A DNA stretch of 64,000 nucleotides from a virus: positions 70,940 to 134,939 of IMG/VR virus record IMGVR_UViG_3300010401_000033; one strand, written 5' to 3'. Under the pieces are notes generated by a model that did not search any database, was not told the DNA's origin, and was given only the letters and a program-made list of their open reading frames with translations. Made by a program: the position numbers and the translations under genes. The number at the start of each line of letters is the position of its first letter. Positions within the stretch are counted from its first letter, which is position 1. Of the stretch, positions 45,146-64,000 are shown one piece after another.

Positions 45146-45484
45146 TTATTTCTCCTTGTAACCTTTCTTCTTTTTGTCTGCAACTAACTTATTGAAAATT
45201 TCGTTCGCCTGAACGAGTCCGACTGGGGAATCATTCTTGATCCCCTTTTGGTGGGTGCCTCCAACACGACCATATTCAAACCGCACCTCGTAGAGACCCT
45301 TGACGGCCGCAATCTGCACGATGTACTCTTTGTTGGAACTACCCTCTTGAAAGACCAGGTGAGTCTTGCGAAACCCGGTCGTCTGAACATCGGGCATCTT
45401 GACTTTTTTGGCTGGTGCCGGAAACTTCTCCGGCATCAGTTTTTGAAGTTGTCTTTGGAGTGCTTGTGAAAGACTGTCGTTCAT
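45146..45484 (-). CDS. WGR-domain protein
   Basis: S.KEY, V.FEYGRVG, F.KLV..K.KKGY. Confidence 0.8.
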   Translation of the reverse strand: MNDSLSQALQRQLQKLMPEKFPAPAKKVKMPDVQTTGFRKTHLVFQEGSSNKEYIVQIAAVKGLYEVRFEYGRVGGTHQKGIKNDSPVGLVQANEIFNKLVADKKKKGYKEK

Positions 45485-46134
45485 AAATCAAACACCGTCA
45501 CAGGGTTGCTGGGCTGATAGTGAACATCACAAATACACACATTGTAGAACCGTGTGGTCCAGGTATCTCGGATGTATGATCCGTAGGCTTCGTGGATATG
45601 CCCGAAGATATGGACCCTCGGTAACCCACGTTTCACATGATACAAGAGATTCACGTCACCCACATGCGGGTCCTCACCCACATGAGGATCAAAGACCCGA
45701 TCCAGGATACCCTTTGGGGGTCCGTGTGTGATAAGAATATCTATGTTGTCTGGAATCTGTGACCAGATCGCTTCTGAGCGGGGTCCCTTTGGGTTATAAT
45801 CAAAGGACCAAGGGGAAGGCTCATAGATTGAACTGGAATACGGGGAACCAAACACACGATATCCATTGACTTCCTTCTCTTCGTGACAGAGGTAGGTTGC
45901 AGGGGCAAACTCCTCTCGCGCAAAGTGAGGGTCCGTTTCGCAATACACGTCATGGTTTCCAGGTACAATGACCTTGAACTGGTGTGGTTGCTTATTGAAC
46001 CATTCGGCGAACTGTGTCACCTCAAAGTTCTTGGCTCGCATTGAGAAATCACCGGCGCAAATGAGCATGTCCCCATCGGGAATACCCATACGGCGATGAA
46101 ATCCGTGGCTGTCTGAAAAGGCTACGATTCTCAA
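45481..46134 (-). CDS. metallophosphoesterase (MPPED-like)
   Basis: DSH, GD, GNHD, THGPP, GHIHE; TTG start after AGGAG. Confidence 0.9.
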   Translation of the reverse strand: MRIVAFSDSHGFHRRMGIPDGDMLICAGDFSMRAKNFEVTQFAEWFNKQPHQFKVIVPGNHDVYCETDPHFAREEFAPATYLCHEEKEVNGYRVFGSPYSSSIYEPSPWSFDYNPKGPRSEAIWSQIPDNIDILITHGPPKGILDRVFDPHVGEDPHVGDVNLLYHVKRGLPRVHIFGHIHEAYGSYIRDTWTTRFYNVCICDVHYQPSNPVTVFDL

Positions 46135-46149
46135 AATACTTCTCCTGTT

Positions 46150-46325
46150 GGACGGTCCGGTGAGAGGTTGCGGTACTTACTAAGTTGGCTATGCGCCTAT
46201 CCTATTTAATTTGCAACCCTCACCCGACTCCACCCGGTAGACGGTATCGTAGAATTTCACAATCCGAGTACGGACCGATGTTTGGACACTCAGCCGGAGG
46301 ATTGTGTTGTCTACGGGACTCTACC
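46150..46325 (-). ncRNA. two tandem structured RNA candidates
   Basis: GGTGAG(A)GGTTGC/GCAACCCTCACC stem; GGTAGA..CGTAGA..CACAATCC/GGATTGTG..TCTACG..TCTACC rod. Confidence 0.5.
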
Positions 46326-46330
46326 AAAGA

Positions 46331-46645
46331 TCAACCCGCGGCAACCATCAGGTCGCTAGCGGAAAGAACAACGGCTGGGGGAGCGATTAAACCACGTTCC
46401 TGCGCGTAGGCAGTCATGGCTTCAACGTTTACTAACTGGTATGAGACGATCTTGCGACCGACTCTATTGCGCTTGATCTCAGCACCGATCTGCTTCAAAT
46501 CCCATAGATAGGCAGAAAAACGATTGAGAACAATGTGGGAACTGAGGAGAGTTTCAATCTCTCCGACTGGGGCTTCATGCCCATCCAACAGCACAAGCAA
46601 AATCTTCTCTGCTTGAGCGGTCTTTTTATTTTTACCTCTGGCCAT
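46331..46645 (-). CDS. putative winged-helix-like DNA-binding protein
   Basis: EKILLVL, R.S.YLWDLK, G.....YQL.N; start at MARGK with GGAGA SD. Confidence 0.55.
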   Translation of the reverse strand: MARGKNKKTAQAEKILLVLLDGHEAPVGEIETLLSSHIVLNRFSAYLWDLKQIGAEIKRNRVGRKIVSYQLVNVEAMTAYAQERGLIAPPAVVLSASDLMVAAG

Positions 46646-46672
46646 GTCGATTGTCTCCATTATGAAGGTGAT

Positions 46673-46701
46673 AGTATAGCACAACTGCGGTACATTGTCA
46701 A
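46673..46701 (-). promoter_or_regulatory. sigma70-type early promoter
   Basis: TTGACA-17-TATACT with extended TG. Confidence 0.8.
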
Positions 46702-46704
46702 GAC

Positions 46705-46920
46705 TTACTTTTTCTTCTTTTTCTTTGCCACTGCCTTGACTTTTCGTGGCTTTCTGAGGTGCTTGGGTCGTAGAACCTTCGGCGTCTCAGGGCTTCGGAA
46801 GTTCAATGCGACACCCTCCGGGCATTGCGTGATCTTCCCACCATTCTTTTCCCATTCGTCCACTAACGCTTTCAATTCAGCGCGGGTGATTTCCTTGGGT
46901 GCTAACAAATCCTTATTCAT
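46705..46920 (-). CDS. small basic hypothetical protein
   Basis: W.K.GGKIT.CP motif; Lys-rich tail. Confidence 0.6.
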   Translation of the reverse strand: MNKDLLAPKEITRAELKALVDEWEKNGGKITQCPEGVALNFRSPETPKVLRPKHLRKPRKVKAVAKKKKKK

Positions 46921-47095
46921 CGTCTACTTCTCCTCGTTCATCGGCAGACTGCGCTGCCTTCTGGTCATGATAAGTTCGGTTGCCTTCACACCACGAACAA
47001 CGCCCGTGGTTGCGACAACTGCCGTCAAATGCCTTAGACTTGCGGTACGGCTTCCGCTGTTCCTTCTTGTGTTCTATCGCTTTGTCCAGGCTCAC
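46913..47095 (-). CDS. conserved small Cys/His protein
   Basis: GTG start; SLDKAI..KKE.RKPY..SKAFD.SCRNHG.C.WC..NR. Confidence 0.6.
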   Translation of the reverse strand: MSLDKAIEHKKEQRKPYRKSKAFDGSCRNHGRCSWCEGNRTYHDQKAAQSADERGEVDDE

Positions 47096-47258
47096 GGACG
47101 TTCTCCCTTCCTCTTCCAGCATACTCCTGCTGGATTGCAAGTTTCGCAGCGGTCGGCATGTGCGAATACTTTGTATAGGTCATGCCTTTCTTGGTTGAAA
47201 GCCACGATCCAAATACTGATCTCGTTCCTTTTCCCTGCGGAGAATCTGATTGTGCCAT
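47034..47258 (-). CDS. hypothetical protein
   Basis: ORF with SD; overlaps the next gene. Confidence 0.4.
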   Translation of the reverse strand: MAQSDSPQGKGTRSVFGSWLSTKKGMTYTKYSHMPTAAKLAIQQEYAGRGRENVREPGQSDRTQEGTAEAVPQV

Positions 47259-47261
47259 CCC

Positions 47262-47402
47262 TTACTCCTCTACTCGTTCACCGTCAATTAACACATCAAT
47301 GCTTCCAGCGGAAACATCGCATCCATCCTCTAACTCAGCCATCTTCGTAATCCACTCACGGTCAGTGAGTCTACGGGTTGGCTGTTCCTTGGGGTCTACC
47401 AT
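47262..47402 (-). CDS. small hypothetical protein, 46 aa
   Basis: MVDPKEQPTRRLTDREWITKMAELEDG...; fills the operon gap. Confidence 0.45.
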   Translation of the reverse strand: MVDPKEQPTRRLTDREWITKMAELEDGCDVSAGSIDVLIDGERVEE

Positions 47403-47596
47403 TCGGCTTCCCCAACACGACCAGAGACAATATCCTCAATATCGTCAATATCGTTCACGTCAAAGTCCCTACACAATTTGTCAACGTCCTCTTGACTTTC
47501 AAGGATCGCCAGCCGTTCTTTCTTCACAGGTCGCGGAGAAATCTTTGCGGCTTTCGGGAGTCTCTTACCGACGCCCCTCTTTACTGGCCTAGACAT
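47396..47596 (-). CDS. hypothetical protein
   Basis: Coupled ORF with a basic N-terminus and acidic C-terminus. Confidence 0.5.
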   Translation of the reverse strand: MSRPVKRGVGKRLPKAAKISPRPVKKERLAILESQEDVDKLCRDFDVNDIDDIEDIVSGRVGEAEW

Positions 47597-47792
47597 TTTT
47601 GATAATTCCCTTCACTCTGAGACGGGTTTTCAGTAACGGACTATCAAGATCAATCGTTTTGGACTTCACCTCATGCTTGGAAAGCCACACCTTCACACGT
47701 CCAATTCCATACCCGACGCCTATTCCCAAACCTGTACTCACCAATAACGCCATCCAAACCATCATGTCCTCCAAGTGAACTACCACGAACAA
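47589..47792 (-). CDS. small membrane protein
   Basis: Hydrophobic segment WMALLVSTGLGIGVGYGIG. Confidence 0.5.
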   Translation of the reverse strand: MFVVVHLEDMMVWMALLVSTGLGIGVGYGIGRVKVWLSKHEVKSKTIDLDSPLLKTRLRVKGIIKNV

Positions 47793-48292
47793 TTATTGTA
47801 GCAACGGACCCACAGGTCATGGTCGCCCTTTTTCAGCACTTGTAACAGTGCCAATTTCTCTCTCATGTAGACTTCTGCAAACTTCGGATCGTGCTGAACA
47901 ATTGACTTCGTATTGGAAATCAAATCAGCCAATTTGACTGTTTGGGCATCAGCGGGCGCTTGTGCCAAATACTCACGATCCAATTCCTTGCGAGCCTCGC
48001 GGTTTCCATGCTCCGCTTCCCCTACCTTCGTCAACCACAAAACAAGGTTAGCGACCTCAGGACCAAACTCTTCCACAAGCACCTCAAGGGTAACTTGCGT
48101 ATCCTCAATTACGTCATGGAGATAGGCAGCGGCAACCATTTCAACAGTATGCCCAGGCACACTCTCAACGATACCTGCCACCTCAATAGGATGGACGATA
48201 TAAGGCTCACCCGTATACTTACGCACTTGTCCCACCGCAGCATGAGCCGCAGTGGCAAACAGCAATGCTCGCTCTTTCGTGTTTCTCAACAT
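47780..48292 (-). CDS. HD-domain hydrolase, SpoT/Mesh1-like small alarmone hydrolase
   Basis: AH..Q.RK..GEPY..HP..VA, AA.LHDV.EDT, VKLAD..SN. Confidence 0.85.
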   Translation of the reverse strand: MLRNTKERALLFATAAHAAVGQVRKYTGEPYIVHPIEVAGIVESVPGHTVEMVAAAYLHDVIEDTQVTLEVLVEEFGPEVANLVLWLTKVGEAEHGNREARKELDREYLAQAPADAQTVKLADLISNTKSIVQHDPKFAEVYMREKLALLQVLKKGDHDLWVRCYNNCSW

Positions 48293-48298: not shown

Positions 48299-48345
48299 AT
48301 TATAGCATATCCCAGGGGATTGTCAAGTGTCTAAGTGGTTGATTT
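48299..48345 (-). promoter_or_regulatory. early promoter with upstream 14-mer; leaderless transcript
   Basis: AAATCAACCACTTA-N5-TTGACA-16-TATAAT, then TATATC-ATG. Confidence 0.75.
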
Positions 48346-49011: not shown

Positions 49012-49668
49012 CTACAGGATTTTTGTGAGTATACCATCGGCTAACTTATACTTGATCGCTTCCTCTGCGGTCAGCCACGCATCGGATGGTTGTAACAATT
49101 TGTCCTTAATCTTCTTCTCGGTGATCCCACAACGTTTCGTGAGTAGGTTGTTCACACGGGCTCTGCAATATCCCAATTCAATCATAGAGGCTTTCAACTC
49201 GTGTTCCTTACCCTCCATGTCGGAATAGAATTCGTGCATCATGATCCCAGTGTGTTGCGCCACATAACGGTGTCCGGCTTCTCCACATGCGAAGATCAAT
49301 GCAGCGGCAGACATGATGTTACCAATACCCACGGTGTGAACAGGAATCGTACTTACCATCATCATATCGACCAGAGCGAAAGCGTTGTACAGGTCACCCC
49401 CTCCCGAATTGATGTATAAGGTCAGATGATCTGGTCGTTCGGTGTTCGTATGCTCAAAGACGATCCACTGGATGGCACGACTGATATTCTCATACCCAAT
49501 ATCCCCAGTGAGGAAGTGGGTGTGGTGTCCAAGTAACCCCTGGCCGATCATGTCGGCATCTGCCATAGGTTCTTGAACGATTATGGTTGTTTCAGAAGGT
49601 TCGGCGTTGTGGTTTGGTACAACCACTGTGTCGGCTTTTTGCTGATCGGGCTTCTTTGTTCGTGCCAA
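49012..49668 (-). CDS. clpP: ClpP-family protease
   Basis: LYINSGGG, MSAAAL (Ser), IMMHE (His), D.WLTAEEA..Y.LAD. Confidence 0.9.
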   Translation of the reverse strand: MARTKKPDQQKADTVVVPNHNAEPSETTIIVQEPMADADMIGQGLLGHHTHFLTGDIGYENISRAIQWIVFEHTNTERPDHLTLYINSGGGDLYNAFALVDMMMVSTIPVHTVGIGNIMSAAALIFACGEAGHRYVAQHTGIMMHEFYSDMEGKEHELKASMIELGYCRARVNNLLTKRCGITEKKIKDKLLQPSDAWLTAEEAIKYKLADGILTKIL

Positions 49669-50373: not shown

Positions 50374-50898
50374 TTAAACCTTGATCGTGGCGCCTTCTGT
50401 CTTAACAACCTTGGCTTCACCCTTTGGAGGAGACACAGGTTCCGTAGTGACTACTTCAAATGGCAATTCAGGGAAGGCTTCCTTGACCAACCGAGCGGTC
50501 AAATAACGGACTTCCAAATCTTTCTTAAAGCACTTCACCAAGAGGGCGGCTTCATCCTTATGGACTGATCCAAGCACAGCATTCAAGATTCGCGCTTCTT
50601 TCTTCGCGTCCAACTTTGCGGTACGCTTTGGGTGCCCGGAAATAAAGATGTAGAGACGGCGCATCTCATTACTGAGACTGGAGTAACACACTCCTGCTGG
50701 CTCAACGGCAGGCTTGTAGTTTGGAATCTGAGAGATATCAAAGTGAATTTTGGGATTGAACGCATAGTTCAGGAATTCCTTGAACCAGATATTTTTTCCG
50801 TACTTTTGGAGGACGGCAACCCTCTGCTCTCGGTTCCTGGCTTTGTCAAATTCCTCAATAATCTCATTAAACAATACACTGGCGTAATTCATGGTCAC
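50374..50898 (-). CDS. conserved T4-like hypothetical protein next to rnh
   Basis: EI.E, P.YKP, L..E.RRLY.F, LV.EAFP pattern. Confidence 0.65.
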   Translation of the reverse strand: MTMNYASVLFNEIIEEFDKARNREQRVAVLQKYGKNIWFKEFLNYAFNPKIHFDISQIPNYKPAVEPAGVCYSSLSNEMRRLYIFISGHPKRTAKLDAKKEARILNAVLGSVHKDEAALLVKCFKKDLEVRYLTARLVKEAFPELPFEVVTTEPVSPPKGEAKVVKTEGATIKV

Positions 50899-50906
50899 CT
50901 CATTGG

Positions 50907-51758
50907 TTAAAAATCTTGTACGGCCTCTGTCAGTTCCTTCAAACCACTTGCCACCAGGTATTGCATGAAAAATCCACGCCCCTTGGGAATAGCGGCCTCA
51001 TAGGAGGTATTTATCCTGCCTTTTATCTCTGCGGGAATCTGTTTGAGGTCAATCAACGTCTCATTGCGCCTAAAATTTCTGAGCATATCTCCGCTGGTGC
51101 AGAAGAGGTCAATCGGCATATTGATCCACTCAATTAACTTCTTTTCCATGATGGGCTTCTGGCGTCCACCAGTGACAAATACATCATCCGGTGAGAGGAT
51201 GTTCGGCACTCCATCGCCTGTGTCTCCTCGAATGATCTGCTGCTTGAGAGTCGCATTCGGGAACTTATCCACGATCATTTTCTTGAGAAGCGGGGAGTAT
51301 TGAGAGACGTTCTTGTACACCTGGAGTTGGGCGAAATCCTTGTCACCTGAGACAATCATGACCTTCTCAGATGGACCATGCACATGCGCCAGGTGACCGA
51401 TGATATCGTCGGCTTCACACCCCTCAGCGTACACTACTTTGTAGGGAAGGCTTTTTTGGAGTTCTTCTTTGAGTTCATCCAGACACAAAAAGATTGAAAC
51501 CCAATTGAATCCAGACTTCGCTCGGTTCTTTTTTCGGTTGGCTTTGTAGTAGGGGAAAATTTCAGTGCGCCAATAGGTTCGGGCATCGTAAGCGATAACC
51601 ACTTCTCCATACTCACGCTTGAAACGCTTGATATTGGCACGAAGAGAATTGAGAATGACATGGCGAACCATATCAATGTTGGCATCGGCTTGTTTGGTCT
51701 GAGCGAGGTGCTCAAGGATGCAGGCATAAGCGATCTGTGAAAAATCAATCAAAACCAT
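50907..51758 (-). CDS. rnh: T4 RNase H (5'-3' exonuclease)
   Basis: LID.SQI, YWR...FPYYKA.R, EADDIIG, SGDKDF.QL, GD.GDGVPN. Confidence 0.95.
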   Translation of the reverse strand: MVLIDFSQIAYACILEHLAQTKQADANIDMVRHVILNSLRANIKRFKREYGEVVIAYDARTYWRTEIFPYYKANRKKNRAKSGFNWVSIFLCLDELKEELQKSLPYKVVYAEGCEADDIIGHLAHVHGPSEKVMIVSGDKDFAQLQVYKNVSQYSPLLKKMIVDKFPNATLKQQIIRGDTGDGVPNILSPDDVFVTGGRQKPIMEKKLIEWINMPIDLFCTSGDMLRNFRRNETLIDLKQIPAEIKGRINTSYEAAIPKGRGFFMQYLVASGLKELTEAVQDF

Positions 51759-51814
51759 TATATAATTCCTTCTTAGATAACCGCATTGAAAGCATTTGCC
51801 AAGCAAGAAAATCT

Positions 51815-52918
51815 CTATGCAATGACTCTCACCAATAGGGTTTCTTTGTTGACTCGCCCAGTGACCTTCGCATCCTTCGTAGTGAGTCCATCAAACAGAT
51901 TCTTCAATGCCACTTTCCCACTCGACAACACTTGCGGAAGAATTTCTTCGGGTTTCCTAAGTTTCTTTGCGCGGGATTTTTGTTTGGAGTAGTTGAGAAT
52001 CGCGCATCCCTTGGCACCCAATCCATCCGCATTGTCTGCGGCATAGAATGTCAGCATACGATTACCACGATGATAGGTCCAAAGTCCTTCACTGCCTATC
52101 ATACGAGTCGCCGGAACGGATTTGAGTTTCATTGCCTTATCTTCTGTACAAAACTTGAAAGACTTGACTTGCTGTTCGGGGGTTCGGGTGCGTTTCTTGC
52201 GGGGGGCTTTGTCTGCGTTCAACTCACCCATGACGGTAAGTGTATCGGAAATGATCTGATCGTAAAGGGCTTCCATTTTCTTCATCTGAGGTTCGGTATA
52301 GTTGCTATACCCCTCATTGACCTGTTCATCGGTTCCAGCAATGGCAAGGCGGAATTCGTCTCTGCAACGCTTGAAATGGTTGACGATAGAAGGGCCTTGG
52401 AGGGCTTGTACGCCCTTTTCTCGCATAAGTTGGAGTGTATTGGGGACTTTCTTGAAATCTGACAAAATAAGGGAATCTACCGCACCTTCCAGCCATCCGA
52501 TACTTTCCCTTGATTTCTCTTTGAGACGGTCTTGGATTGTGACGGGCTTTGCTGGTTTTCCAATGGGTTTATCGGTATCAACCTTCTCTTCAACCAGGGT
52601 GCCTGACATAGATTTGAGGTGCTTGGAGAGCCAGGCCATGGATTTGTTATCCAGGATTGCGCCTCTGGAAAGCATACGGCAGACAAATCCCACTGTGGCG
52701 ACCTGCTGTTCAATCTGCTTGGCGCTGGCTTTAATCCCCTGTGACTTGCAGTATTCAGTGAGATATTTGTAGGAAACTTCCTTTTCCTTAAATTGGTTAT
52801 ACCAATTCAAAGCAAGGTTGAGTTCCGCTTGTGACAACTCCATGAAGCCGAACGTCGGTTCTTCCTTCGAGAGGAGTTCATTGACCCGCTGATTTGTAGT
52901 CTGGCGCTTGAGTTTCAT
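51815..52918 (-). CDS. conserved T4-like hypothetical protein
   Basis: ALNWYN, D....EGY, KLRKPEE.L, GR.N..T.L. Confidence 0.7.
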   Translation of the reverse strand: MKLKRQTTNQRVNELLSKEEPTFGFMELSQAELNLALNWYNQFKEKEVSYKYLTEYCKSQGIKASAKQIEQQVATVGFVCRMLSRGAILDNKSMAWLSKHLKSMSGTLVEEKVDTDKPIGKPAKPVTIQDRLKEKSRESIGWLEGAVDSLILSDFKKVPNTLQLMREKGVQALQGPSIVNHFKRCRDEFRLAIAGTDEQVNEGYSNYTEPQMKKMEALYDQIISDTLTVMGELNADKAPRKKRTRTPEQQVKSFKFCTEDKAMKLKSVPATRMIGSEGLWTYHRGNRMLTFYAADNADGLGAKGCAILNYSKQKSRAKKLRKPEEILPQVLSSGKVALKNLFDGLTTKDAKVTGRVNKETLLVRVIA

Positions 52919-52989: not shown

Positions 52990-53397
52990 TCAGAGCGGTA
53001 GGTCAGCATGGAATTTAGTGTAACGATCTCGAATCATGCGCTCAAGGTCTGGATCGCGGTACCTGTAGTTATCCGGTATCTGTAGACAGATTACTGGTGT
53101 CTTGAGTTTCGCCGCAAATAATCGTTCCTTGACCTCATCAGCCTGGTCGTCTGTCATACAGACGAATTCATCCGCCCATTCGAGTAGCACGTCATCCAAT
53201 GGAATAAGGGCAAACTCCGGCGTGATCACTGCGGCACGGGTATTGAAGTTCCAGGGTTCGCCAGCAAGCACGACGGCTGCGGTGGGGGACCGCAGCAATC
53301 CTGCCGAGCAGACACATACCACTCGCTTGTGTTCAGCGATATTTTGATATCGATTTTGGCAGTTGCCTAATCGATTCATCAGAAATGGGTCCATCAT
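52990..53397 (-). CDS. low-molecular-weight phosphatase-like protein
   Basis: CSAGLLRS (CX5R), L.IPD.Y.YRDP.L. Confidence 0.8.
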   Translation of the reverse strand: MMDPFLMNRLGNCQNRYQNIAEHKRVVCVCSAGLLRSPTAAVVLAGEPWNFNTRAAVITPEFALIPLDDVLLEWADEFVCMTDDQADEVKERLFAAKLKTPVICLQIPDNYRYRDPDLERMIRDRYTKFHADLPL

Positions 53398-56467: not shown

Positions 56468-56859
56468 TTTGATTCTCCTGGAAAAAGGTTTCCACCTGTG
56501 AATATATTCAACAACTGTCTCTTAGCCTGTAGCAACTCTGCTTTGGCATCTAAGGCAGCATCTATCTCTTTCAAAAACCATGATATTTGGTGATTGTTGC
56601 GAGCCGTCAACTCCCCTTCAAGGAATCGCTTCTCAAGTTGCTGCATAAGGTGGTTATACTTTCCACCATCCCCACTTGGTCCGGTGACCGTCGCATACAA
56701 CCTATTCAAATCCTCAATACGTTGCCTCAAATCCGTGATGGCACGGCAGGCAATTTCATGAGTCGGGGTCGCCAACATTTGGTTAGCGACCTGTTTGCGA
56801 TATTCCGGGTCGTCGTATCGGCTCACATTTTGATCGACAAAAGGCATCTCATTACTCAC
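56464..56859 (-). CDS. hypothetical protein
   Basis: Operonic ORF. Confidence 0.55.
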   Translation of the reverse strand: MSNEMPFVDQNVSRYDDPEYRKQVANQMLATPTHEIACRAITDLRQRIEDLNRLYATVTGPSGDGGKYNHLMQQLEKRFLEGELTARNNHQISWFLKEIDAALDAKAELLQAKRQLLNIFTGGNLFPGESK

Positions 56860-57781
56860 ACTTCAAAAGATGTAACAACAGACTATCCACTAGTGCACCG
56901 TCTACCTCTTCGGGTAACGTAGAATTCTTGGAGAGCAATTCTACTTCTTCCATGAGGGTATCAAGTTTGGGGGCCACTTCGTTTACAAAATGCAGTGCCC
57001 CACTCTTTACAGCACGGAGAAATTCTGTCTCAGGCAACGGATAGGTGAAATCCCCATCCTTAAGGATACCGCGCACTTGATACGCCGCCCTGAACGCATG
57101 GCTTATGGCTTTCCAGTCTACCCCTTCGTTCGTCTCGGCTTGTTTGGCACGGGCGCCATAATTCTCCACAAAACGCTCCACCATAGATACATAATGTCCA
57201 GTGGTTGCATTCAGGGTCATTTTCTTTCCGCACATTTCATAGAACGTTACACCCTCAGCGGTCATGAGTCCACAATGCTCACCCGTAGGGAGCGTGAGAC
57301 GAACATCATTTACCTTTGTATCTGGGTGGTTCGCTTTGAGGATATCCAATACTGCCTTGGCTTCCGCAAGTCGTGAACCCTTCACCCCATACTTTGCGGC
57401 TTGCTTCCGAGCATAGCCTACCAATGAGGAGAGATTCTTGGTGTAGAACATCCTGCGGTTAGCAACCAAACATTCCCAATGCCAGGTATAGGATAACCAG
57501 GCAGACTTGGGTGCATGGAGCATATCCAGGGCAACGGTTTCCCCCTTCTTGGCTAACTCCAAAAAGTAGTGCAGGGAATACGTTTCCTTGTCGGTGTCCT
57601 CAGAGGTATTCTTTTCGTTGGAATTCAACTTAGTGTTTTCGTTGATAGACTTTGGGAACCTTCCCAAAAGCATATCATCAAAAGAAGGCATGTACACACC
57701 CTTGTAGTCTTTGTCGGACGAGGGGCTTGACGTGCCGTAGAGGTGGGAACCGAAAACCATTTCAACTAGATTCGTTCGCAT
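56852..57781 (-). CDS. Pol-beta-superfamily nucleotidyltransferase (T4 NrdC.11-like)
   Basis: FGSHLYGT....SD.D.KG, YA.KQA.KY..KGSRL, DWKA.SHA.R. Confidence 0.85.
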   Translation of the reverse strand: MRTNLVEMVFGSHLYGTSSPSSDKDYKGVYMPSFDDMLLGRFPKSINENTKLNSNEKNTSEDTDKETYSLHYFLELAKKGETVALDMLHAPKSAWLSYTWHWECLVANRRMFYTKNLSSLVGYARKQAAKYGVKGSRLAEAKAVLDILKANHPDTKVNDVRLTLPTGEHCGLMTAEGVTFYEMCGKKMTLNATTGHYVSMVERFVENYGARAKQAETNEGVDWKAISHAFRAAYQVRGILKDGDFTYPLPETEFLRAVKSGALHFVNEVAPKLDTLMEEVELLSKNSTLPEEVDGALVDSLLLHLLKCE

Positions 57782-57790: not shown

Positions 57791-57839
57791 AGTATAACAG
57801 ACTTAGAGGGAGTTGTCAAGTGGGTTAAGTGGTTGATTT
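57791..57839 (-). promoter_or_regulatory. early promoter with upstream 14-mer; near-leaderless transcript
   Basis: AAATCAACCACTTA-N6-TTGACA-17-TATACT, then TATATCATA-ATG. Confidence 0.75.
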
Positions 57840-57884
57840 TATTGAGCATATGGGGACGTATCGGATTAAATACATCAAAAGAGT

Positions 57885-57892
57885 TATAAATA
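57885..57892 (+). promoter_or_regulatory. late promoter TATAAATA
   Basis: Exact consensus upstream of the plus-strand fibre cassette. Confidence 0.75.
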
Positions 57893-57924
57893 GGAGAGTT
57901 TCGTTTTGGTTTGCTGAGGATACC

Positions 57925-58122
57925 ATGTCAAATGTTACCTACCGAGTATTCCTTGAGAAATTAGGCGGAACTGATCCACTCACCTTCATCGGAAATCATG
58001 GTGATCTTTTCTATGATCCCTTTGATGGGGTCCTGAGAGTATCAAACGGTGAGACCCAAGGCGGCACAACGATTAGTGGTGCCAACGCATCCATAACAGT
58101 AGTTGACGGAGGACTCTTCTAA
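57925..58122 (+). CDS. small fibre protein (Mtd_N/hyaluronidase-N-like), ending in DGGLF
   Basis: FIG..GDLFYD...LRVSNG.T.GG; start at 57925 with GAGGA SD. Confidence 0.65.
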   Translation: MSNVTYRVFLEKLGGTDPLTFIGNHGDLFYDPFDGVLRVSNGETQGGTTISGANASITVVDGGLF

Positions 58123-58676
58123 TGCAAATTCAAATTAAACATTCAGCAAATACCGGCAATACTCCTGTCTCTCTTGCAAACGGTGAATTGGCACTTAACT
58201 TTGCCGATCAAATTCTCTATTACAAACACGCCAACGGGTCTATCATCCAATTAGCGAATGGCGCTCAATTAGGTGTAGACGATTATGCTCGCCTCCGTGC
58301 AAACGGTGCGTTTGACACTGCCAATGCAGCCTACGACAAGGCGAATGGTGCCGCGCAGTTTTCATTCTCCACAATCAATGTGGCGGGGCAATCCGATATC
58401 GTCGCGGATTCAAACAATGACACACTGACTCTTGAAGCCGGAGCGGGTATCTCCATCACCACAGATGCCCCAAACGATACCATCGTCATTTCATCCACAG
58501 CGACCGCCCCAAACATTTTCCAGACCTTTGCGGTTGCTGGACAAAACAATGTGGTTGCAGACTCCAATACGGACACTCTAACCCTAGTGGCAGGAGAAAG
58601 TATCAGCATCATCACCGACCAAGCGAATGACTCAATCACCTTCGCGGTCACAACCATAGATGGTGGTACATTCTAA
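58122..58676 (+). CDS. short fibre protein sharing modules with 4996-9681
   Basis: IKHS...P.SL.NGELA.N N-terminus, two VAGQ..ADSN.DTL modules, DGGTF end. Confidence 0.75.
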   Translation: MQIQIKHSANTGNTPVSLANGELALNFADQILYYKHANGSIIQLANGAQLGVDDYARLRANGAFDTANAAYDKANGAAQFSFSTINVAGQSDIVADSNNDTLTLEAGAGISITTDAPNDTIVISSTATAPNIFQTFAVAGQNNVVADSNTDTLTLVAGESISIITDQANDSITFAVTTIDGGTF

Positions 58677-58756
58677 CACTTCATGGTCGTCAAAGTCAAG
58701 CATTCTTCCAACACCGGGAATACTCCTGTCTCTCTTGCAAACGGTGAATTGGCACT
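58158..58756 (+). repeat. 38-bp exact direct repeat (58158-58195 and 58719-58756)
   Basis: aatactcctgtctctcttgcaaacggtgaattggcact occurs in both fibre gene starts. Confidence 0.9.
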
Positions 58757-59297
58757 CAACGCCATTGACCAATTGCTGTACTACCGCCATGCGAACGGCG
58801 CCCTAGCGATCCTAGCGAACGGCGCCTCACTCCTCACCTTTGCCACCGCACAGGTGTCCAGCAATCAGAATCAAATCCCTGCAAATACTTCCGCCTATAA
58901 AGTCACATTCAACTCAAATGATTTGTTAATTGGTGTATCTCACACAATAGGTGACTCTCGCATATTTGTTTTGTCAAACGGGTGGTACAGAATTACAGCA
59001 TCGGGTAACTATCTTAAGAATACAGGGGGCACTACATTCAGGATCGTGGATTGCTGGGTGCGAAGAAATAATGTGGATGTAACAGGCACTACAACACGAA
59101 CCCCTATTCTTAATGCAATGGTGGATATTCCAATGAACATGGAGACATTATTGAGGTTAAATTCAAATGATTATATTGAATTGGTTCAGGCGATAGATTC
59201 TACAACAGGAGGGGCTGGTTTGAGAACTGCGGTTGGATTAAGTGGAGCACCGGACATACGATCTGCGTCTTTAAGTATTACAAAGATTGCGAATTAG
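58683..59297 (+). CDS. fibre tip protein with a C1q/TNF-like C-terminal domain
   Basis: Same N-terminus as 58122; V.FN, G.Y.I, W.R.N..D, L...DYIEL. Confidence 0.65.
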   Translation: MVVKVKHSSNTGNTPVSLANGELALNAIDQLLYYRHANGALAILANGASLLTFATAQVSSNQNQIPANTSAYKVTFNSNDLLIGVSHTIGDSRIFVLSNGWYRITASGNYLKNTGGTTFRIVDCWVRRNNVDVTGTTTRTPILNAMVDIPMNMETLLRLNSNDYIELVQAIDSTTGGAGLRTAVGLSGAPDIRSASLSITKIAN

Positions 59298-59300: not shown

Positions 59301-59375
59301 TGGTGCACCGCCCAGGAATTGCACCCGGTTCCCCTGGTTAAAAGCCAGGTAATCATCTACTAAATTTTGCGGTGC
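59301..59375 (-). tRNA. tRNA-Lys(UUU)
   Basis: Cloverleaf; CCTGG-CTTTTAA-CCAGG; CCA encoded; T-loop TGCAATT. Confidence 0.85.
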
Positions 59376-59535: not shown

Positions 59536-59937
59536 TTAGATCAAAAAGTCTCTCCACTTGATATCAAAAATACAATTCTCAGGAGCCCCACGAAACATCG
59601 GGGCGATCTGTGCATCCGTATATCCTGCCAAGCCACAACCTATGCGGGTGACAAAAAATACCTCATGCTCGTAGTATCGTGCGTATTCTAAAAAATCCTT
59701 CACCTGATGGTGAATATACTCCAATGCCAAAACATCAAGGTCTGCGCCCTTGGTAGGAATCGCATAGGATTGCCCGGTGAGTCCAATCCCTACTCCGTTC
59801 TTTGCTCCATAGTTCTCACGGGCACACTTCGCGGCTCCCGCTCCATGACGCCCTGCGAGGTTCGAGCCAAACACAAAGATACAGTCCTTGTACGCGGAAG
59901 AATGCCTTGGATAATCTTCATCAAAAAATAACATCAC
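59536..59937 (-). CDS. conserved phage protein, possibly macrodomain-like
   Basis: IFVFGSNLAGRHGAGAA, SYAIPTK, VTRIGCGLAGY; function tentative. Confidence 0.65.
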   Translation of the reverse strand: MMLFFDEDYPRHSSAYKDCIFVFGSNLAGRHGAGAAKCARENYGAKNGVGIGLTGQSYAIPTKGADLDVLALEYIHHQVKDFLEYARYYEHEVFFVTRIGCGLAGYTDAQIAPMFRGAPENCIFDIKWRDFLI

Positions 59938-60242: not shown

Positions 60243-60318
60243 TGGTCCCCCTGGCAGGAGTTTAACCTGCGGTCTCCTTGTTAGAAGCAAGGCATGTTGT
60301 ACGCTACACCACAGAGGG
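60243..60318 (-). tRNA. tRNA-Arg(UCU)
   Basis: CCTTG-CTTCTAA-CAAGG; CCA; T-loop TTAAACT. Confidence 0.88.
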
Positions 60319-60483: not shown

Positions 60484-60557
60484 TGGTGCTCCCACCGGGT
60501 GCTGCCCCCGGCTCTCCAGATTGAGAATCTGGCGATCTACTGATAATCTATGGGAGC
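60484..60557 (-). tRNA. tRNA-Glu(CUC)
   Basis: CCAGA-TTCTCAA-TCTGG; CCA; T-loop GGCAGCA. Confidence 0.8.
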
Positions 60558-61056: not shown

Positions 61057-61284
61057 TTACCAACTATCGTAATCCGTCAAATCAATTACCGCGCCAGTAA
61101 CAGTATTCTCAACCTTAAGCACGGTGCCTATCGACGTGGGGGTAAAGTGATACGTGTACGCCCCGCCTATCGCTCCGTAGTGAGGACACTCACAACCTTC
61201 TTTGGTGGCCTGCCAAATCTTGTCCTGCTCCTCTATAAATGCGTTAATCTTTTCCTGTTCCTCGGGCGTCACATGAAACTTCAT
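61057..61284 (-). CDS. conserved hypothetical phage protein
   Basis: GAIGG.Y.Y.FTPTSIG....V, DLTDY..W. Confidence 0.65.
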   Translation of the reverse strand: MKFHVTPEEQEKINAFIEEQDKIWQATKEGCECPHYGAIGGAYTYHFTPTSIGTVLKVENTVTGAVIDLTDYDSW

Positions 61285-61616
61285 AATAAATTCCTTCTTT
61301 GCTTCCTTCGTTTATTCCCCTCTTCTAATGCCACTTTCCAAGAAGGTAGTTTTGTCAAATCCAAAACATTTTCTCTCGGAGTACCCCAGTATAAATGCTT
61401 TGGGTTGCAACAGAGGCTATTATTACAAGCGTGGCATAGGTATACTCGACCCATTCCCTTTGGAATGGTTGTTCTCAACTCATACGCCAGAAGGGCCCTG
61501 TATTCCGTGGAACATCTACCACCCAGTTCGATACAAGGTTCACTAAGGTCAAGGTGCGCTTGTCGCTCCTTTAGTTCCCTTGTGATATAGGTATAAATGT
61601 TCTCAAAAATCAACAT
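61281..61616 (-). CDS. HNH-type (His-Cys) endonuclease-like protein
   Basis: CHACNN..CCNP.HLYWGT..EN..D. Confidence 0.75.
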   Translation of the reverse strand: MLIFENIYTYITRELKERQAHLDLSEPCIELGGRCSTEYRALLAYELRTTIPKGMGRVYLCHACNNSLCCNPKHLYWGTPRENVLDLTKLPSWKVALEEGNKRRKQRRNLL

Positions 61617-61815: not shown

Positions 61816-61903
61816 TGGCGGAAGAGACAGGATTTGAACCTGCGTGGCTGTTACACCGCATCGCTTTCCAAGCGAGCACCATTAGCCTCTCGGTCACTCT
61901 TCC
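61816..61903 (-). tRNA. tRNA-Ser(GGA)
   Basis: Loop TTGGAAA; long variable arm; CCA. Confidence 0.92.
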
Positions 61904-62311
61904 TTAAAATCGTTTCTGATACACTCGCCAAATCTTTTGTGCCACATCCAAATTAAAATGGGGCTTCTTATCTCTTACTTGCTTTTCATCTTCATCTGTC
62001 AACAGATATCGTGCCAATCCGACGGCGATGCCTGCGGATCGTGACATGCCTGCTTCACAGTGAATCACAATTCTATCAGAATCTAACAACCACTTCTCAA
62101 CGAAGTCTGCCACTTCAACCGCTTGGGCGTCTGAGAACCCCTGTTCATGCACTTCGTACCGCATCGTGTCTTTGAAGTGAAGATTCAGCCGTGCCAAACA
62201 ATCAACAGACTGGCGCGGGTGCTCTCTTCCAGGTGATACAATAGAAATCACGATATCACGGTTCGTGATGGGCTCAACACGAAATTCCTGCTCTGATAAC
62301 ACTCGAATCAT
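61904..62311 (-). CDS. PTP/dual-specificity phosphatase-like protein
   Basis: IHCEAGMSRS (CX5R). Confidence 0.8.
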   Translation of the reverse strand: MIRVLSEQEFRVEPITNRDIVISIVSPGREHPRQSVDCLARLNLHFKDTMRYEVHEQGFSDAQAVEVADFVEKWLLDSDRIVIHCEAGMSRSAGIAVGLARYLLTDEDEKQVRDKKPHFNLDVAQKIWRVYQKRF

Positions 62312-62323
62312 AATGTATCCTGC

Positions 62324-62411
62324 TGGCGGAAGGCTGAGGTCTTGATCCCCACGGTGTTACCCGCGATTCGCTTTCGAGGCGATCCCGACGCGCCCGTTCG
62401 GTTAACCTTCC
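62324..62411 (-). tRNA. tRNA-Ser(CGA)
   Basis: Loop CTCGAAA; long variable arm; CCA. Confidence 0.85.
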
Positions 62412-62418
62412 AAATACA

Positions 62419-62484
62419 GACCGCGTAGCAAGGTTCCTCTGGTCCCCTTTGCCGCATTCTCCTGTTCGGCGTGAACCCGCGGTC
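62419..62484 (-). ncRNA. unknown small structured RNA candidate
   Basis: Nested GACCGCG/CGCGGTC, GGTTC/GAACC and GCCG/CGGC stems. Confidence 0.5.
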
Positions 62485-62489
62485 ATTTA

Positions 62490-62576
62490 TGGCGGAAGAG
62501 AGAGGACTCGAACCCCACGGTGTTACCCGCGATCCGATTAGCAATCGGTCCAGTTACCCTGCACTGGTTCTCTTCC
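62490..62576 (-). tRNA. tRNA-Ser(GCU)
   Basis: Loop TTGCTAA; long variable arm; CCA. Confidence 0.9.
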
Positions 62577-62798: not shown

Positions 62799-62874
62799 TG
62801 GAGCCCCCTGTCAGAATTGCACTGACCATCTCGACCTTACCAAGGTCTTGCCCCGCTCACTGGGCCTAGAGGGC
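62799..62874 (-). tRNA. tRNA-Thr(GGU)
   Basis: Loop TTGGTAA; CCA; T-loop TGCAATT. Confidence 0.85.
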
Positions 62875-62880
62875 GAATTT

Positions 62881-62950
62881 GTGATAAGTTGCTAAGTTAG
62901 ATTACTTTTGCCCGTTAGGGATTAGAGTTGCCAAAATAACAACTTATCAT
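62881..62950 (-). ncRNA. small structured RNA candidate
   Basis: 13-bp TGATAAGTTGTTA/TAGCAACTTATCA stem with inner TTTTG/CAAAA and CCC-TAAC-GGG. Confidence 0.45.
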
Positions 62951-62958
62951 ATTTAATA

Positions 62959-63236
62959 GGACAAACGATAAGCGGCGTTCTGTCGTGAACTAACATTTAT
63001 CTAGGAGTGTAATTACTCACACCCTCCAGCCTCCTACCCGCCAGATCGTATGCGAACAGCACACTGGCTTATTTGGAGTTGCACCGGATAGAGATTGCTG
63101 GTTTCACTTCCCCCTTGCGGGTTCTTCCTCACTGTGGCTCTAATCCTCGGATTACTCCGGGTGGTCGTTAGCCACTATCCTGTTCTCTGGTGCGCCGACT
63201 TTCCTCTGGCTTGCGCCAGCGTTAGTTTGTTTCTCC
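62959..63236 (-). ncRNA. rnpB: RNase P RNA (compact bacterial type-A-like)
   Basis: GAGGAAAGTCGGCG ... ACAGAACGCCGCTTA (P4); P2 CTAACG/TGTTAG; P3 with GCAA loop; P6 GAACAG/CTGTTC; L15 GGU; P18 with GTAA loop. Confidence 0.92.
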
Positions 63237-63242
63237 TATATG

Positions 63243-63320
63243 TGGTGCCGAAGGTGGGACTCGAACCCACAAGAAACTGGTTTTGAATCAGTTATGTCTG
63301 CCAATTGCAATCACTTCGGC
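63243..63320 (-). tRNA. tRNA-Leu(CAA), short variable loop
   Basis: Loop TTCAAAA; D-loop AATTGGCAGA; A73; CCA. Confidence 0.85.
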
Positions 63321-63562
63321 GGTAAAACTGTTGTGACATACTCACAACCTAATCCGTAGACAACGGTGATAATTCGTCCTCGTAATTCAACTTGAACAAT
63401 CTTTTGTTTCTTCTCCCCTAATGCTTCGAGGAGCCCATTACCTAATTTGGCACATCTACAGAGGTGCTCATAATCTGCCTTTGAGAGAACCATGCTGTAG
63501 CGTTCCTGCAAACGCTGCTTCGTGTGCTCAAATGAGTAGGCTCTGTCTTTCTTCGTTTTCAT
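63311..63562 (-). CDS. hypothetical protein; stop codon lies inside tRNA-Leu(CAA)
   Basis: MKTKKDRAYSFEH..RL.ERY....TTVLPPK*. Confidence 0.6.
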   Translation of the reverse strand: MKTKKDRAYSFEHTKQRLQERYSMVLSKADYEHLCRCAKLGNGLLEALGEKKQKIVQVELRGRIITVVYGLGCEYVTTVLPPK

Positions 63563-63563
63563 A

Positions 63564-63641
63564 TGGTGCCAGAGAAGGGACTCGAACCCCCAGGCGCTTC
63601 GTTTTAAGTGAAGCAGGTCTGCCAATTGCACTCACTCTGGC
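63564..63641 (-). tRNA. tRNA-Leu(UAA), short variable loop
   Basis: Loop CTTAAAA; D-loop AATTGGCAGA; CCA. Confidence 0.85.
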
Positions 63642-63645
63642 GTCA

Positions 63646-63720
63646 TGGAGCCCTTTACTGAACTTGCATCAGCCTATCCTGCTTACGAAACAGGCGCCTC
63701 GCTATCTAGGCTTAAAGGGC
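63646..63720 (-). tRNA. tRNA-Thr(CGU)
   Basis: CCTGT-TTCGTAA-GCAGG; CCA; T-loop TGCAAGT. Confidence 0.85.
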
Positions 63721-63724
63721 ATTA

Positions 63725-63802
63725 TGGTCAGGGAGGTGGGATTTGAACCCACAATCACTCGCTTCCGAAGCGAGTAGAGTAACCAGATTCTCCTACTCCC
63801 TG
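63725..63802 (-). tRNA. tRNA-Pro(CGG)
   Basis: CTCGC-TTCGGAA-GCGAG; C1-G72; CCA. Confidence 0.9.
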
Positions 63803-63813
63803 TTATTCTCGGT

Positions 63814-63893
63814 TCCCCCTCCTGTTACTAGCGGATGCAAGTTTCCTTGCCATGCAAACCTCCGCGCGGTCGGCACTCCTTACAGGAAGGGGA
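63814..63893 (-). ncRNA. unknown small structured RNA candidate
   Basis: TCCCCTTCCTGT/ACAGGAGGGGGA stem; GCGGA/TCCGC; GCAAG-GAAA-CTTGC GNRA hairpin. Confidence 0.55.
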
Positions 63894-63895
63894 TA

Positions 63896-63969
63896 TGGAG
63901 CGAGCACCGGATTCTGCCACCGGGACTGCGGGTTGGAAGCCCGCGGTTTTTCTTGTAAACTATGCTCGC
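63896..63969 (-). tRNA. tRNA-Gly(UCC)
   Basis: GCGGG-CTTCCAA-CCCGC; U73; CCA; T-loop GGCAGAA. Confidence 0.82.
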
Positions 63970-63976
63970 GTATGTA

Positions 63977-64000
63977 TGGAGCGGGTGACGGGTAACGCTC
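63977..64000 (-). tRNA. 3' part of a tRNA, probably Gly, truncated by the window edge
   Basis: ...AGCGTTACCCGTCACCCGCTCCA; Gly-type acceptor end. Confidence 0.6.

Follow-up and report, generated by a model that had tools for sequence, protein, structure and literature searches.

The stretch of DNA considered here (the window, 64,000 nucleotides) is the last 64 kb of the single 134,939-bp contig of IMG/VR record IMGVR_UViG_3300010401_000033. Our subject is its final 18.5 kb, from position 45,481 to the contig end. There a tightly packed array of at least 15-17 transfer RNA (tRNA) genes, a slimmed class-A RNase P RNA and a one-piece transfer-messenger RNA (tmRNA) is followed downstream, among a DNA ligase and an RNase H, by genes for RtcB, RlaP/NrdC.11, ClpP, TusA, a Rel/SpoT hydrolase and three phosphoesterases. 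An initial annotation had proposed that these genes form one integrated phage system for tRNA supply, repair and ribosome rescue. Below, G000 is the record that holds the window, other handles of the form G0xx are whole viral records, those of the form L0xx or L1xx are fetched loci, and L047 is the locus of G001.

The contig has a G+C content of about 48%, lacks a terminal repeat and carries nearly all of its genes on the minus strand. The first 40 kb of the window encodes a T4-type baseplate, tail and tape measure, and a gp6-like wedge protein shares 42% identity with the one from Pelagibacter phage HTVC008M and 38% with its counterpart in methylophage Melnitz. IMG/VR places G000 in the class 'linear' with a completeness of 80% (CheckV estimate), and two relatives, G001 (178,609 bp) and G021 (168,076 bp), are complete with direct terminal repeats. 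On the basis of this T4-like content, the record class and the complete relatives, the DNA is a fragment of a lytic T4-like soil myovirus. If 'integrated' was meant in the sense of a prophage, the linear record and the two terminally repeated relatives speak against the term, and a prophage origin was rejected on these grounds, no search for an integrase having been made. The public runs that contain the tRNA region are soil metagenomes, no RNA run being listed among them; one soil run of a different study contains 60% of the words sampled, with contigs on 26 of the 30 bins of the stretch. Array parts left uncovered in runs X2-X4 were not counted as evidence. The array is cut off at the contig end, its start lying within the missing ~20% of the genome. 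A megablast search of 50,697 phage records with the entire 18.5 kb gave no match, although near-identical records possibly lie outside that set. For comparison, 80 viral loci were fetched with RtcB as anchor and 10-kb flanks; 23 of them (RtcB at least 63% identical) are called the clade below, and the other 57 belong elsewhere.

The tRNA array, its RNase P RNA and its tmRNA

All RNA genes lie on the minus strand, between 59.3 and 64.0 kb:

63899-63969, minus: tRNA-Gly(UCC); Rfam 39.2 bits, anticodon taken from the sequence, followed by CCA; non-canonical T-loop; final gene before the contig end
63725-63802, minus: tRNA-Pro(CGG); ARAGORN, Rfam 62.1 bits
63649-63720, minus: tRNA-Thr(CGU); Rfam 43.1 bits, aligned; followed by CCA
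63567-63641, minus: tRNA-Leu(UAA) by anticodon; Rfam 36.9 bits, ARAGORN at a relaxed threshold; short variable arm
63243-63320, minus: tRNA-Leu(CAA); ARAGORN, Rfam 42.3 bits; 4 nt upstream of the RNase P RNA
62953-63238, minus: compact class-A RNase P RNA, 286 nt; RF00010, 191.5 bits
62802-62874, minus: tRNA-Thr(GGU); Rfam 41.3 bits, ARAGORN at a relaxed threshold; TGCAA-type T-loop
62719-62793, minus: tRNA-Val(UAC); ARAGORN, Rfam 46.6 bits
62580-62656, minus: tRNA-Arg(GCG); ARAGORN, Rfam 60.7 bits
62490-62576, minus: tRNA-Ser(GCU); ARAGORN, in Rfam only as tRNA-Sec (31.3 bits, same clan)
62324-62411, minus: probable tRNA-Ser(CGA); ARAGORN at a relaxed threshold only; cloverleaf, long variable arm, CCA
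61816-61903, minus: tRNA-Ser(GGA); ARAGORN, Rfam 47.4 bits
60626-60960, minus: one-piece tmRNA; RF00023, 78.6 bits, aligned
60487-60557, minus: tRNA-Glu(CUC); Rfam 46.9 bits, aligned; non-canonical T-loop
60421-60478, minus: 'mini-tRNA', an unconfirmed 58-nt tRNA-like set of hairpins without CCA
60243-60318, minus: tRNA-Arg(UCU); ARAGORN, Rfam 56.9 bits
59946-60022, minus: tRNA-Arg(CCU); ARAGORN, Rfam 63.7 bits
59458-59534, minus: tRNA-Arg(UCG); ARAGORN, Rfam 35.7 bits
59381-59454, minus: tRNA-Val(GAC); ARAGORN
59301-59375, minus: borderline tRNA-Lys(UUU); Rfam 28.1 bits against a cut-off of 29, ARAGORN at a relaxed threshold only; followed by CCA

The RNase P RNA (M1 RNA, or rnpB, in E. coli) is the most novel part of the region. 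It matches RF00010 over the full model (positions 1-367) with 191.5 bits against a cut-off of 100 and an E value of 2e-60. In an alignment of four clade copies (MAFFT, RNAalifold), 31 of 76 predicted pairs show compensatory change, with both sides altered and pairing kept, so that the assignment in the initial annotation is upheld. The size reduction falls in the specificity-domain region, where 2 nt remain of one consensus stretch of 12 nt and none of another of 43 nt; we take these to be P12 and P13/P14. The phage copy thus shares with bacterial class-A RNase P RNA (RF00010) the full covariance model, the conserved core and helices kept by compensatory change, but it lies in the tRNA array of a lytic phage, measures only 286 nt and has no RnpA gene alongside: RnpA (PF00825) was found in none of G000, G001 and G021, whereas the positive control was found in 10 bacteria.

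Within the clade, the RNase P RNA occupies the same place, between tRNA-Leu(CAA) and tRNA-Arg(GCG), at four of six covered sites (the window, L073, L074 and L079). At the other two, L047 and L068, the RNA is missing and the matching array site spans only ~200 nt. RF00010 scored above cut-off in 3 of 23 related records, most of which are small fragments. The locus therefore adds a T4-like lineage in which RNase P RNA is syntenic, structurally conserved and demonstrably optional. The contigs of the independent soil study cover every bin that spans the RNase P RNA among the array bins reached, and, among the contig pieces listed, one extends only to the last 40 nt of this RNA. Blastn of the RNase P region against the 50,697 phage records, near-identical ones again possibly lying outside the set, returned no match. 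A full-text search, which did not cover supplements or subscription papers, found no published description of a phage-encoded RNase P RNA, and none is described in the available text of a 2024 RNase P review (PMC11143913), of PMC7162821 or of PMC7824862.

The RNA also recurs in other viral records. A degenerate RNase P core pattern picked out 44 stretches in 2.9 million viral contigs, and of the 42 IMG/VR records with the pattern that were searched, 35 gave an RF00010 score above cut-off. Ten of these 42 are of the provirus class and carry a full-length, high-scoring RNase P RNA, which is probably host rnpB. An Rfam scan of 18 loci found the RNA in 17, mostly among tRNA genes. In the 17 non-clade records with RNase P RNA, a full tmRNA and RtcB were each present in 4; in the four of these records that are at least 90% complete, neither was present (0/4 for each).

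Earlier work already interprets phage tRNA arrays, RNA ligases and tmRNAs as means of maintaining translation during infection. The novelty of the present locus is a ribozyme gene inherited at a fixed site in the tRNA array of a T4-like lineage and recurring in other large uncultured phages. Should the RNase P RNA prove active, 5' maturation of tRNAs would be one more host process supplemented by phages; its naturally minimised copies are also of use for study.

ARAGORN at default settings reported 10 tRNAs, and five further genes (60487-60557, 62802-62874, 63567-63641, 63649-63720 and 63899-63969) reached the Rfam gathering score. With Lys-UUU and Ser-CGA as probable members, the tally is 15 firm and 2 probable tRNAs, all 17 followed directly by CCA, and many of the spacers between them are only 3-8 nt long. 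The array reported in the initial annotation is thus real, although its count of at least 18 tRNAs was slightly generous. Copies of tRNA-Ser(CGA) that are 88-90% identical occur in L074 and L076. Default ARAGORN misses several of the tRNAs because their T-loops are non-standard: a TGCAA-type loop, with G in place of U55, is present in the tRNAs at 59301-59375, 62802-62874 and 63649-63720 and in the tmRNA, and Gly-UCC and Glu-CUC have other unusual T-loops. This loop is independent of the phage RNase P, since the tmRNA of G001, which has no RNase P RNA, shares it. With only 75-78 nt and a short variable arm, the two tRNAs with Leu anticodons (CAA and UAA) depart from the class-II tRNA-Leu of bacteria; short 'Leu' tRNA genes are also found in relatives, and 'Leu' is meant by anticodon only. 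Two open reading frames (ORFs), 62274-62486 and 62308-62544, overlap tRNA-Ser genes and are probably not genes; the sole tblastn match of the former falls on a tRNA in G001.

The tmRNA, too, is real. Its RF00023 score of 78.6 bits stands against a cut-off of 47, and it has the G3-U acceptor pair, an encoded CCA and a tag that ends in VEREFAMAA before a stop; the tag frame (...E.(E/Q)FA(M/L)AA and stop) is conserved in all nine aligned clade copies. RF00023 exceeded its cut-off in 8 of the 23 related records, again mostly small fragments. Tagging by tmRNA and degradation of the tagged products by Clp proteases are established. In L068 and L071, the tmRNA is kept and ClpP is missing, and SmpB (PF01668) was found in none of G000, G001 and G021. 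According to the available text of PMC9004378 and PMC7162821, Melnitz-like phages, pelagimyophages and huge phages encode tmRNAs, for which upkeep of the hijacked translation machinery or the tagging of proteins for degradation has been proposed; the likeness to the present phage is that of a distant T4-like relative with an ssrA of its own. The present tmRNA differs from those in being one-piece rather than two-piece and permuted, in lying within a tRNA array with no riboswitch noted, in its distance of ~11 kb from the ClpP gene and, by comparison with some huge phages (PMC7162821), in the absence of a phage-encoded SmpB. The 'mini-tRNA' listed in the initial annotation found no backing: it folds at -21.7 kcal/mol, but its sole Rfam match is to tRNA-Sec (20.8 bits, E 1.3), and no copy occurs in the 80 related loci or in G001.

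A side observation concerns RNase P RNA in other phages. In four other phage records, the RNase P RNA is followed ~85-145 nt downstream by an element of ~75 nt, whose similarity to the tmRNA model is confined to the two ends and scores 33-41 bits, below the cut-off:

G029:C1:306275-306350: ~75-nt element
G033:C1:32043-32118: ~75-nt element
G044:C1:33788-33863: ~75-nt element
G051:C1:9344-9417: ~75-nt element

Judged by these partial matches, it could be a tRNA-Ala-like gene or a tag-less mini-tmRNA gene.

Repair, protease and phosphoesterase genes and their retention

The protein-coding genes named in the initial annotation are the following:

61904-62311, minus: dual-specificity-phosphatase-like protein (DSP) with HCX5R motif; Pfam DSPc (PF00782) 28.1 bits, below the 33.5 cut-off
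56852-57781, minus: RlaP-family Pol-beta nucleotidyltransferase, homologue of T4 NrdC.11; Pfam PF10127 59.7 bits (cut-off 23); PHROG 388, E 1e-84
53497-54669, minus: RtcB RNA ligase; Pfam PF01139 425.9 bits (cut-off 27); PHROG 1075, E 1e-140
52990-53397, minus: orf135, a probable divergent phosphatase like the low-molecular-weight protein tyrosine phosphatases (LMW-PTP), CX5R-S; motif CSAGLLRS, no Pfam hit
49012-49668, minus: ClpP-family serine protease; Pfam PF00574 107.2 bits
48354-48608, minus: TusA-family sulfur carrier; Pfam PF01206 60.7 bits (cut-off 28.6)
47780-48292, minus: hydrolase-only RelA/SpoT homologue (HD_4), small-alarmone-hydrolase-like, 170 aa; Pfam PF13328 61.5 bits
45481-46134, minus: MPPED2-like metallophosphoesterase (MPE); Pfam Metallophos 39.2 bits; MPPED2 chain 3rl4 in the PDB, E 2e-34

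The assignments of RtcB, the Pol-beta nucleotidyltransferase, ClpP, TusA and the SpoT-like HD protein hold, with Pfam scores above cut-off. The roles attached to the families mostly hold as well, MPE as an RNA-linked enzyme fitting less well. RtcB, which has matches in 710 phage records, joins 3'-phosphate or 2',3'-cyclic-phosphate ends to 5'-OH ends. In T4 the answer to PrrC is Pnkp/Rnl1; the present phage differs from the Rnl1 pathway in its use of RtcB. A search for Rnl1 itself in G000, G001 and G021 gave no match, but its positive control was likewise silent and the search is therefore uninformative. RlaP is 46.5% identical to RB16 nrdC.11 over 98% of its length and has matches in 1511 phage records. 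The available text of Carruthers et al. (bioRxiv 10.64898/2025.12.29.696909) assigns T4 NrdC.11 to the RlaP family (PF10127), describes the addition by RlaP of 1-2 nucleoside monophosphates at damaged RNA 3' ends and reports bacterial RtcB-RlaP-RtcA operons, in which, as here, RtcB and a PF10127 nucleotidyltransferase share one neighbourhood. In the phage, however, the two genes are 2.2 kb apart with the DNA ligase and small ORFs between them, and RlaP has its own predicted promoter and is missing in 6 of 13 covered relatives that keep RtcB.

The ClpP-family protein aligns with the ClpP chain 6hwm, its Ser, His and Asp triad intact, and scores below the NCBIfam equivalog cut-offs, which makes it a divergent member. 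PHROG and NCBIfam also list families of head-maturation proteases for it; this assignment was rejected, since a separate T4 gp21-type prohead protease is present in G000 (G000:C1:56899-57351), G001 and G021. In TusA, the CPMP motif aligns with CPEP of E. coli TusA (chain 1dcj) with the cysteine kept, and its NCBIfam equivalog score is 55.5, below the cut-off of 78. The HD_4 protein matches the Rel hydrolase domain 1vj7 at E 2.6e-20, together with MESH1 and small alarmone hydrolase chains, its HD and ED motifs align, and the synthetase domain is absent, so that it comprises the hydrolase domain only. In this make-up and in its length of 170 aa it resembles the small alarmone hydrolases MESH1 and ATfaRel, of which the available text of bioRxiv 10.1101/2021.04.30.441581 reports that such enzymes reverse the pyrophosphorylation of tRNA CCA ends by toxSAS enzymes. 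It differs from them in being phage-encoded and in standing alone, unpaired with a toxSAS toxin gene. No ClpX/ClpA-type ATPase (AAA_2, PF07724) was found in G000, G001 or G021; because SmpB, RnpA and AAA_2 are all absent from these three records, the phage RNAs and ClpP would need host partners.

Of the three phosphatases claimed, the metallophosphoesterase is well supported by Pfam and PDB matches, and both CX5R loops are present, although the family membership of the two CX5R proteins is less secure. In a PADLOC scan of ten ORFs, the sole strong match was that of the MPE to the candidate-defence model PDC-S10 (222.6 bits, full length), the coiled-coil matches of orf163 not being meaningful. 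MPPED2, the mammalian protein that it resembles, is an enzyme of the cyclic-nucleotide phosphodiesterase type, and judged by these likenesses the MPE may have cyclic nucleotides as its substrate, or a part in phage-phage exclusion, instead of a role at RNA ends. The protein at 61904-62311 carries the motif HCEAGMSRS and has 38 weak PDB matches, nearly all to dual-specificity or tyrosine phosphatases; by its motif and these matches it is DSP-like and not a proven family member. Its gene is missing in G001, G021, G016, G010 and G014, and a soil-run contig (X2) that joins 61906 to 62323 with 4 other letters between also lacks it. With such a near-identical strain, the DSP gene behaves as an insertion/deletion cassette inside the tRNA array. 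In orf135, the CX5R-S loop and a later DP motif are invariant in 13 of 13 clade homologues; its sole PDB profile matches are two weak ones to chains of the LMW-PTP family (E 0.19 and 0.44), and the Atlas lead is LMWPc (0.92).

The 23 clade loci share a common order, with variable members in brackets: tRNA array (with or without tmRNA and RNase P RNA), (A1S_2505), (RlaP), ligase, orf64, RtcB, (orf135), PHROG 11903, RNase H, DUF6433, a GT2-like gene, ClpP, TusA, HD_4, small ORFs, orf117 and MPE. Retention, counted as present over covered loci and only where the position is covered, is as follows:

RNase H: 23/23 clade loci
DNA ligase: 17/17 covered clade loci
TusA: 15/15 covered clade loci
ClpP: 14/16 covered clade loci
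HD_4: 12/14 covered clade loci
MPE: 9/12 covered clade loci, one absence probably a truncation
orf135: 13/23 clade loci
RlaP: 7/13 covered clade loci, the 6 without RlaP keeping RtcB
A1S_2505: 6/11 covered clade loci
DSP: 0/5 covered clade loci
HNH: 0/5 covered clade loci

The two complete relatives give the same picture. G001 has an array with 25 ARAGORN tRNAs, the tmRNA, RtcB, ClpP, TusA, HD_4 and MPE, and is without RNase P RNA, RlaP, orf135 and DSP; G021 has the RNase P RNA, the tmRNA and RlaP and lacks both CX5R proteins. RtcB, TusA, ClpP and HD_4 are thus a stable core, and RNase P RNA, RlaP, the phosphatases and HNH are optional cassettes, a split that can guide which pairs of genes merit joint testing.

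Signals for separate transcription were sought by consensus pattern scans only, and together with one opposed cassette they are:

57829-59297, plus: three opposed ORFs, two with tail-fibre-like N-termini; PHROG tail-fibre hits and many tblastn hits in the G001 fibre region
57791-57819, minus: sigma70-like promoter directly upstream of the RlaP gene; 11/12 hexamer matches and extended TG
48299-48326, minus: perfect sigma70-like promoter directly upstream of the HD_4 gene; 12/12 hexamer matches and extended TG
46673-46701, minus: sigma70-like promoter directly upstream of orf117; 11/12 hexamer matches and extended TG

Promoter-like sites as a whole number 27, which is not above the shuffled expectation of 21.8 ± 4.7. 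The sole exact T4-type late motif of the region, TATAAATA, is on the plus strand at 57885-57892, ahead of the fibre-like ORFs and opposite to the other genes. These ORFs resemble repeats in the fibre genes of G001, and the cassette lies between RlaP and the tRNA array also in L074 and L075. They are probably late genes outside any RNA function, and on these predicted signals the block looks like several early units interrupted by a late cassette.

Interpretation of the neighbourhood

We think it probable that the region is a lineage-specific neighbourhood of separately promoted early genes for translation maintenance and not one interdependent system. The genes are clustered, as the initial annotation held, and the block is syntenic in 23 related viral contigs. 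Co-occurrence across related phages, which had been set beforehand as the check on joint action, does not support a single coordinated system: contents vary among close relatives, four components are missing from G001, and the partners are rare in other RtcB phages. Among the 57 RtcB loci outside the clade, not one has this set of neighbours (ClpP-like in 2, HD_4 in 1, MPE in 1, RlaP in 1, TusA in 0), and five have at least 10 tRNAs within the locus. Contigs of 42 kb or more carry 34 of the other-lineage RtcB loci, and in the whole records of these RlaP was found in 4, HD_4 in 4, TusA in 0 and tmRNA in 2. The interspersed replication genes, the opposed late genes and at least three separate sigma70-like promoters likewise argue against one system.

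In the neighbourhood so understood, the tRNA array would be transcribed as long precursors, and, since the spacers are only 3-8 nt, each junction would need a cut by RNase P. The phage P RNA probably pairs with host RnpA and would raise or secure RNase P capacity. With alanyl-tRNA synthetase and SmpB from the host, the tmRNA could release ribosomes that have stopped on broken messages, its tagged products passing to Clp proteases, for which the phage would supply extra ClpP docking on a host ATPase. RtcB could reseal tRNAs cut by anticodon nucleases, after RlaP, where needed, had restored their 3' nucleotides, and the HD_4 enzyme could clear (p)ppGpp or (p)ppApp, or take off the pyrophosphate added to tRNA CCA ends by toxSAS enzymes. 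Every gene would be beneficial by itself, and the clustering would reflect a shared early-expressed region, prone to gain and loss, inherited within one phage lineage.

Parts of this picture have precedents. In the available text of Iyer et al. (2021; PMC7824862), tRNA provisioning and RNA repair against host attack were proposed for jumbo phages, and a patchy phage ClpP was noted and proposed to act against the host. The present locus shares with those phages the pairing of tRNAs with an RNA ligase as a counter to tRNA attack. It differs in belonging to a 135 kb contig of a ~170 kb T4-like phage and in adding RNase P RNA and tmRNA, two terms missing from the available text of that paper.

Several observations weigh against the neighbourhood reading. 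The contig is ~80% complete, and the start of the array is missing. The order RtcB ... ClpP-TusA-HD_4 ... MPE is kept in 23 contigs whose proteins have diverged to 55-78% identity, and TusA, ClpP and HD_4 are retained almost like replication genes; the conserved order could reflect selection for the combination, beyond shared descent. The neighbour test required tblastn E < 1e-5 and at least 50% coverage, which distant homologues may escape, and the co-occurrence counts are uncorrected for phylogeny and come mostly from fragments. Finally, in G042, G049 and G062 (L019, L027 and L041), apparently a separate lineage, RNase P RNA, a full tmRNA and a longer RtcB (an open frame of 471-491 aa) lie within ~10-21 kb, a modest hint of recurrent association of the three.

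There are a few other ways in which the region could be read. First, the tRNAs, RNase P RNA and tmRNA might be a pure supplement of capacity and codons, matched to phage codon usage and a burst of translation in a host that differs in base composition, with no link to defence and with unrelated host-takeover genes as neighbours. The phage has ~48% G+C and a G+C content at third codon positions (GC3) of 0.52, figures that describe the phage side only, and encodes tRNAs for codons that it uses often (TTG 27% of Leu, CGA 16% and AGA 11% of Arg, GGA 28% of Gly); the short spacers, with one RNase P cut per junction, fit such a role as well. Yet RtcB, RlaP and a hydrolase-only Rel homologue have no obvious part in plain capacity, and four Arg tRNAs beside repair enzymes fit the replacement of damaged tRNAs at least equally. 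We regard this explanation as unlikely.

Second, all of these functions (tRNA supply, RNase P, RtcB and RlaP, TusA thiolation, tmRNA with ClpP, and alarmone removal) could have been co-selected as one coordinated counter-defence system against defences that shut down translation, such as anticodon nucleases, toxSAS and PARIS-type systems. The conserved order in 23 contigs, the good retention of TusA, ClpP and HD_4 and the proximity of RNase P RNA, tmRNA and RtcB in a second lineage would agree with this, and for all the families named there are established functions connected with tRNA or with stalled translation. Moreover, RtcB and RlaP are operon partners in bacteria (available text of bioRxiv 10.64898/2025.12.29.696909), and small alarmone hydrolases detoxify toxSAS enzymes that pyrophosphorylate tRNA (available text of bioRxiv 10.1101/2021.04.30.441581). 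Against it, the block persists in G001 although RNase P RNA, RlaP and both CX5R proteins are missing there, L068 and L071 have tmRNA without ClpP, and RtcB phages from other lineages seldom have the partners. Replication genes, several promoters and a late cassette on the other strand are scattered through the block, and the MPE is closer to a cyclic-nucleotide phosphodiesterase or candidate defence protein than to an RNA end-healing enzyme. We consider such a system distinctly unlikely.

Third, and more doubtful still, a bolder joint reading would see a near-complete line of tRNA production and rescue that exploits host protein partners, the conserved block being a multi-layer answer to immunity that targets translation. 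Its parts would be that the slimmed RNA captures host RnpA, so that phage pre-tRNAs are matured first or despite host RNA shut-off; that RtcB, RlaP and the Rel-type hydrolase mend tRNA bodies and CCA ends damaged by nucleases and toxSAS; that the tmRNA and extra ClpP clear ribosomes on cleaved host messages and recycle the products; and that the RNase P RNA represents an undescribed class of phage auxiliary gene.

Finally, that the RNase P RNA and tmRNA are passengers, non-functional host fragments picked up with tRNAs, or products of misassembly, is extremely improbable and already largely refuted: although tmRNA fragments left in phages by imprecise prophage excision are discussed in the available text of PMC9004378, and 10 of the 42 pattern-bearing IMG/VR records are proviruses with probable host rnpB, four phage genomes that have diverged from one another, including a complete one with terminal repeats, share the RNase P site, compensatory changes have preserved the helices of the RNA, all nine tmRNA copies retain the tag frame, and contigs of an independent soil study cover 26 of 30 array bins, including all those of the RNase P RNA.

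Other genes interspersed in the block

The initial annotation had passed over the DNA ligase, RNase H, HNH and A1S_2505 genes, the three plus-strand ORFs and about ten unknown ORFs that lie among the genes it listed. Apart from the late cassette, those with matches or conserved neighbours are:

61281-61616, minus: HNH homing-endonuclease-like ORF in the array, a weak match; Pfam HNH_3 E 5.6e-4, 19.9 bits, below the 24.8 cut-off
59536-59937, minus: A1S_2505-family phage non-structural protein, between two Arg tRNAs; NCBIfam NF049995 146.5 bits; PHROG 2072
55310-56467, minus: ATP-dependent DNA ligase, a replication gene; Pfam DNA_ligase_A_M 52.3 bits
51815-52918: 367-aa protein of PHROG 11903; no Pfam, Atlas or meaningful PDB match, the best PDB match being a designed repeat protein
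50907-51806, minus: T4-type RNase H / 5'-3' flap exonuclease, a replication gene; Pfam 5_3_exonuc_N 68.9 bits and RNaseH_C 42.2 bits

The genes for the PHROG 11903 protein, RNase H and DUF6433 (50374-52918) are adjacent also in a different RtcB lineage (L134-L138), which suggests that this trio is a replication-linked module; because the trio recurs elsewhere, we count the PHROG 11903 protein as replication-linked and not as part of RNA repair.

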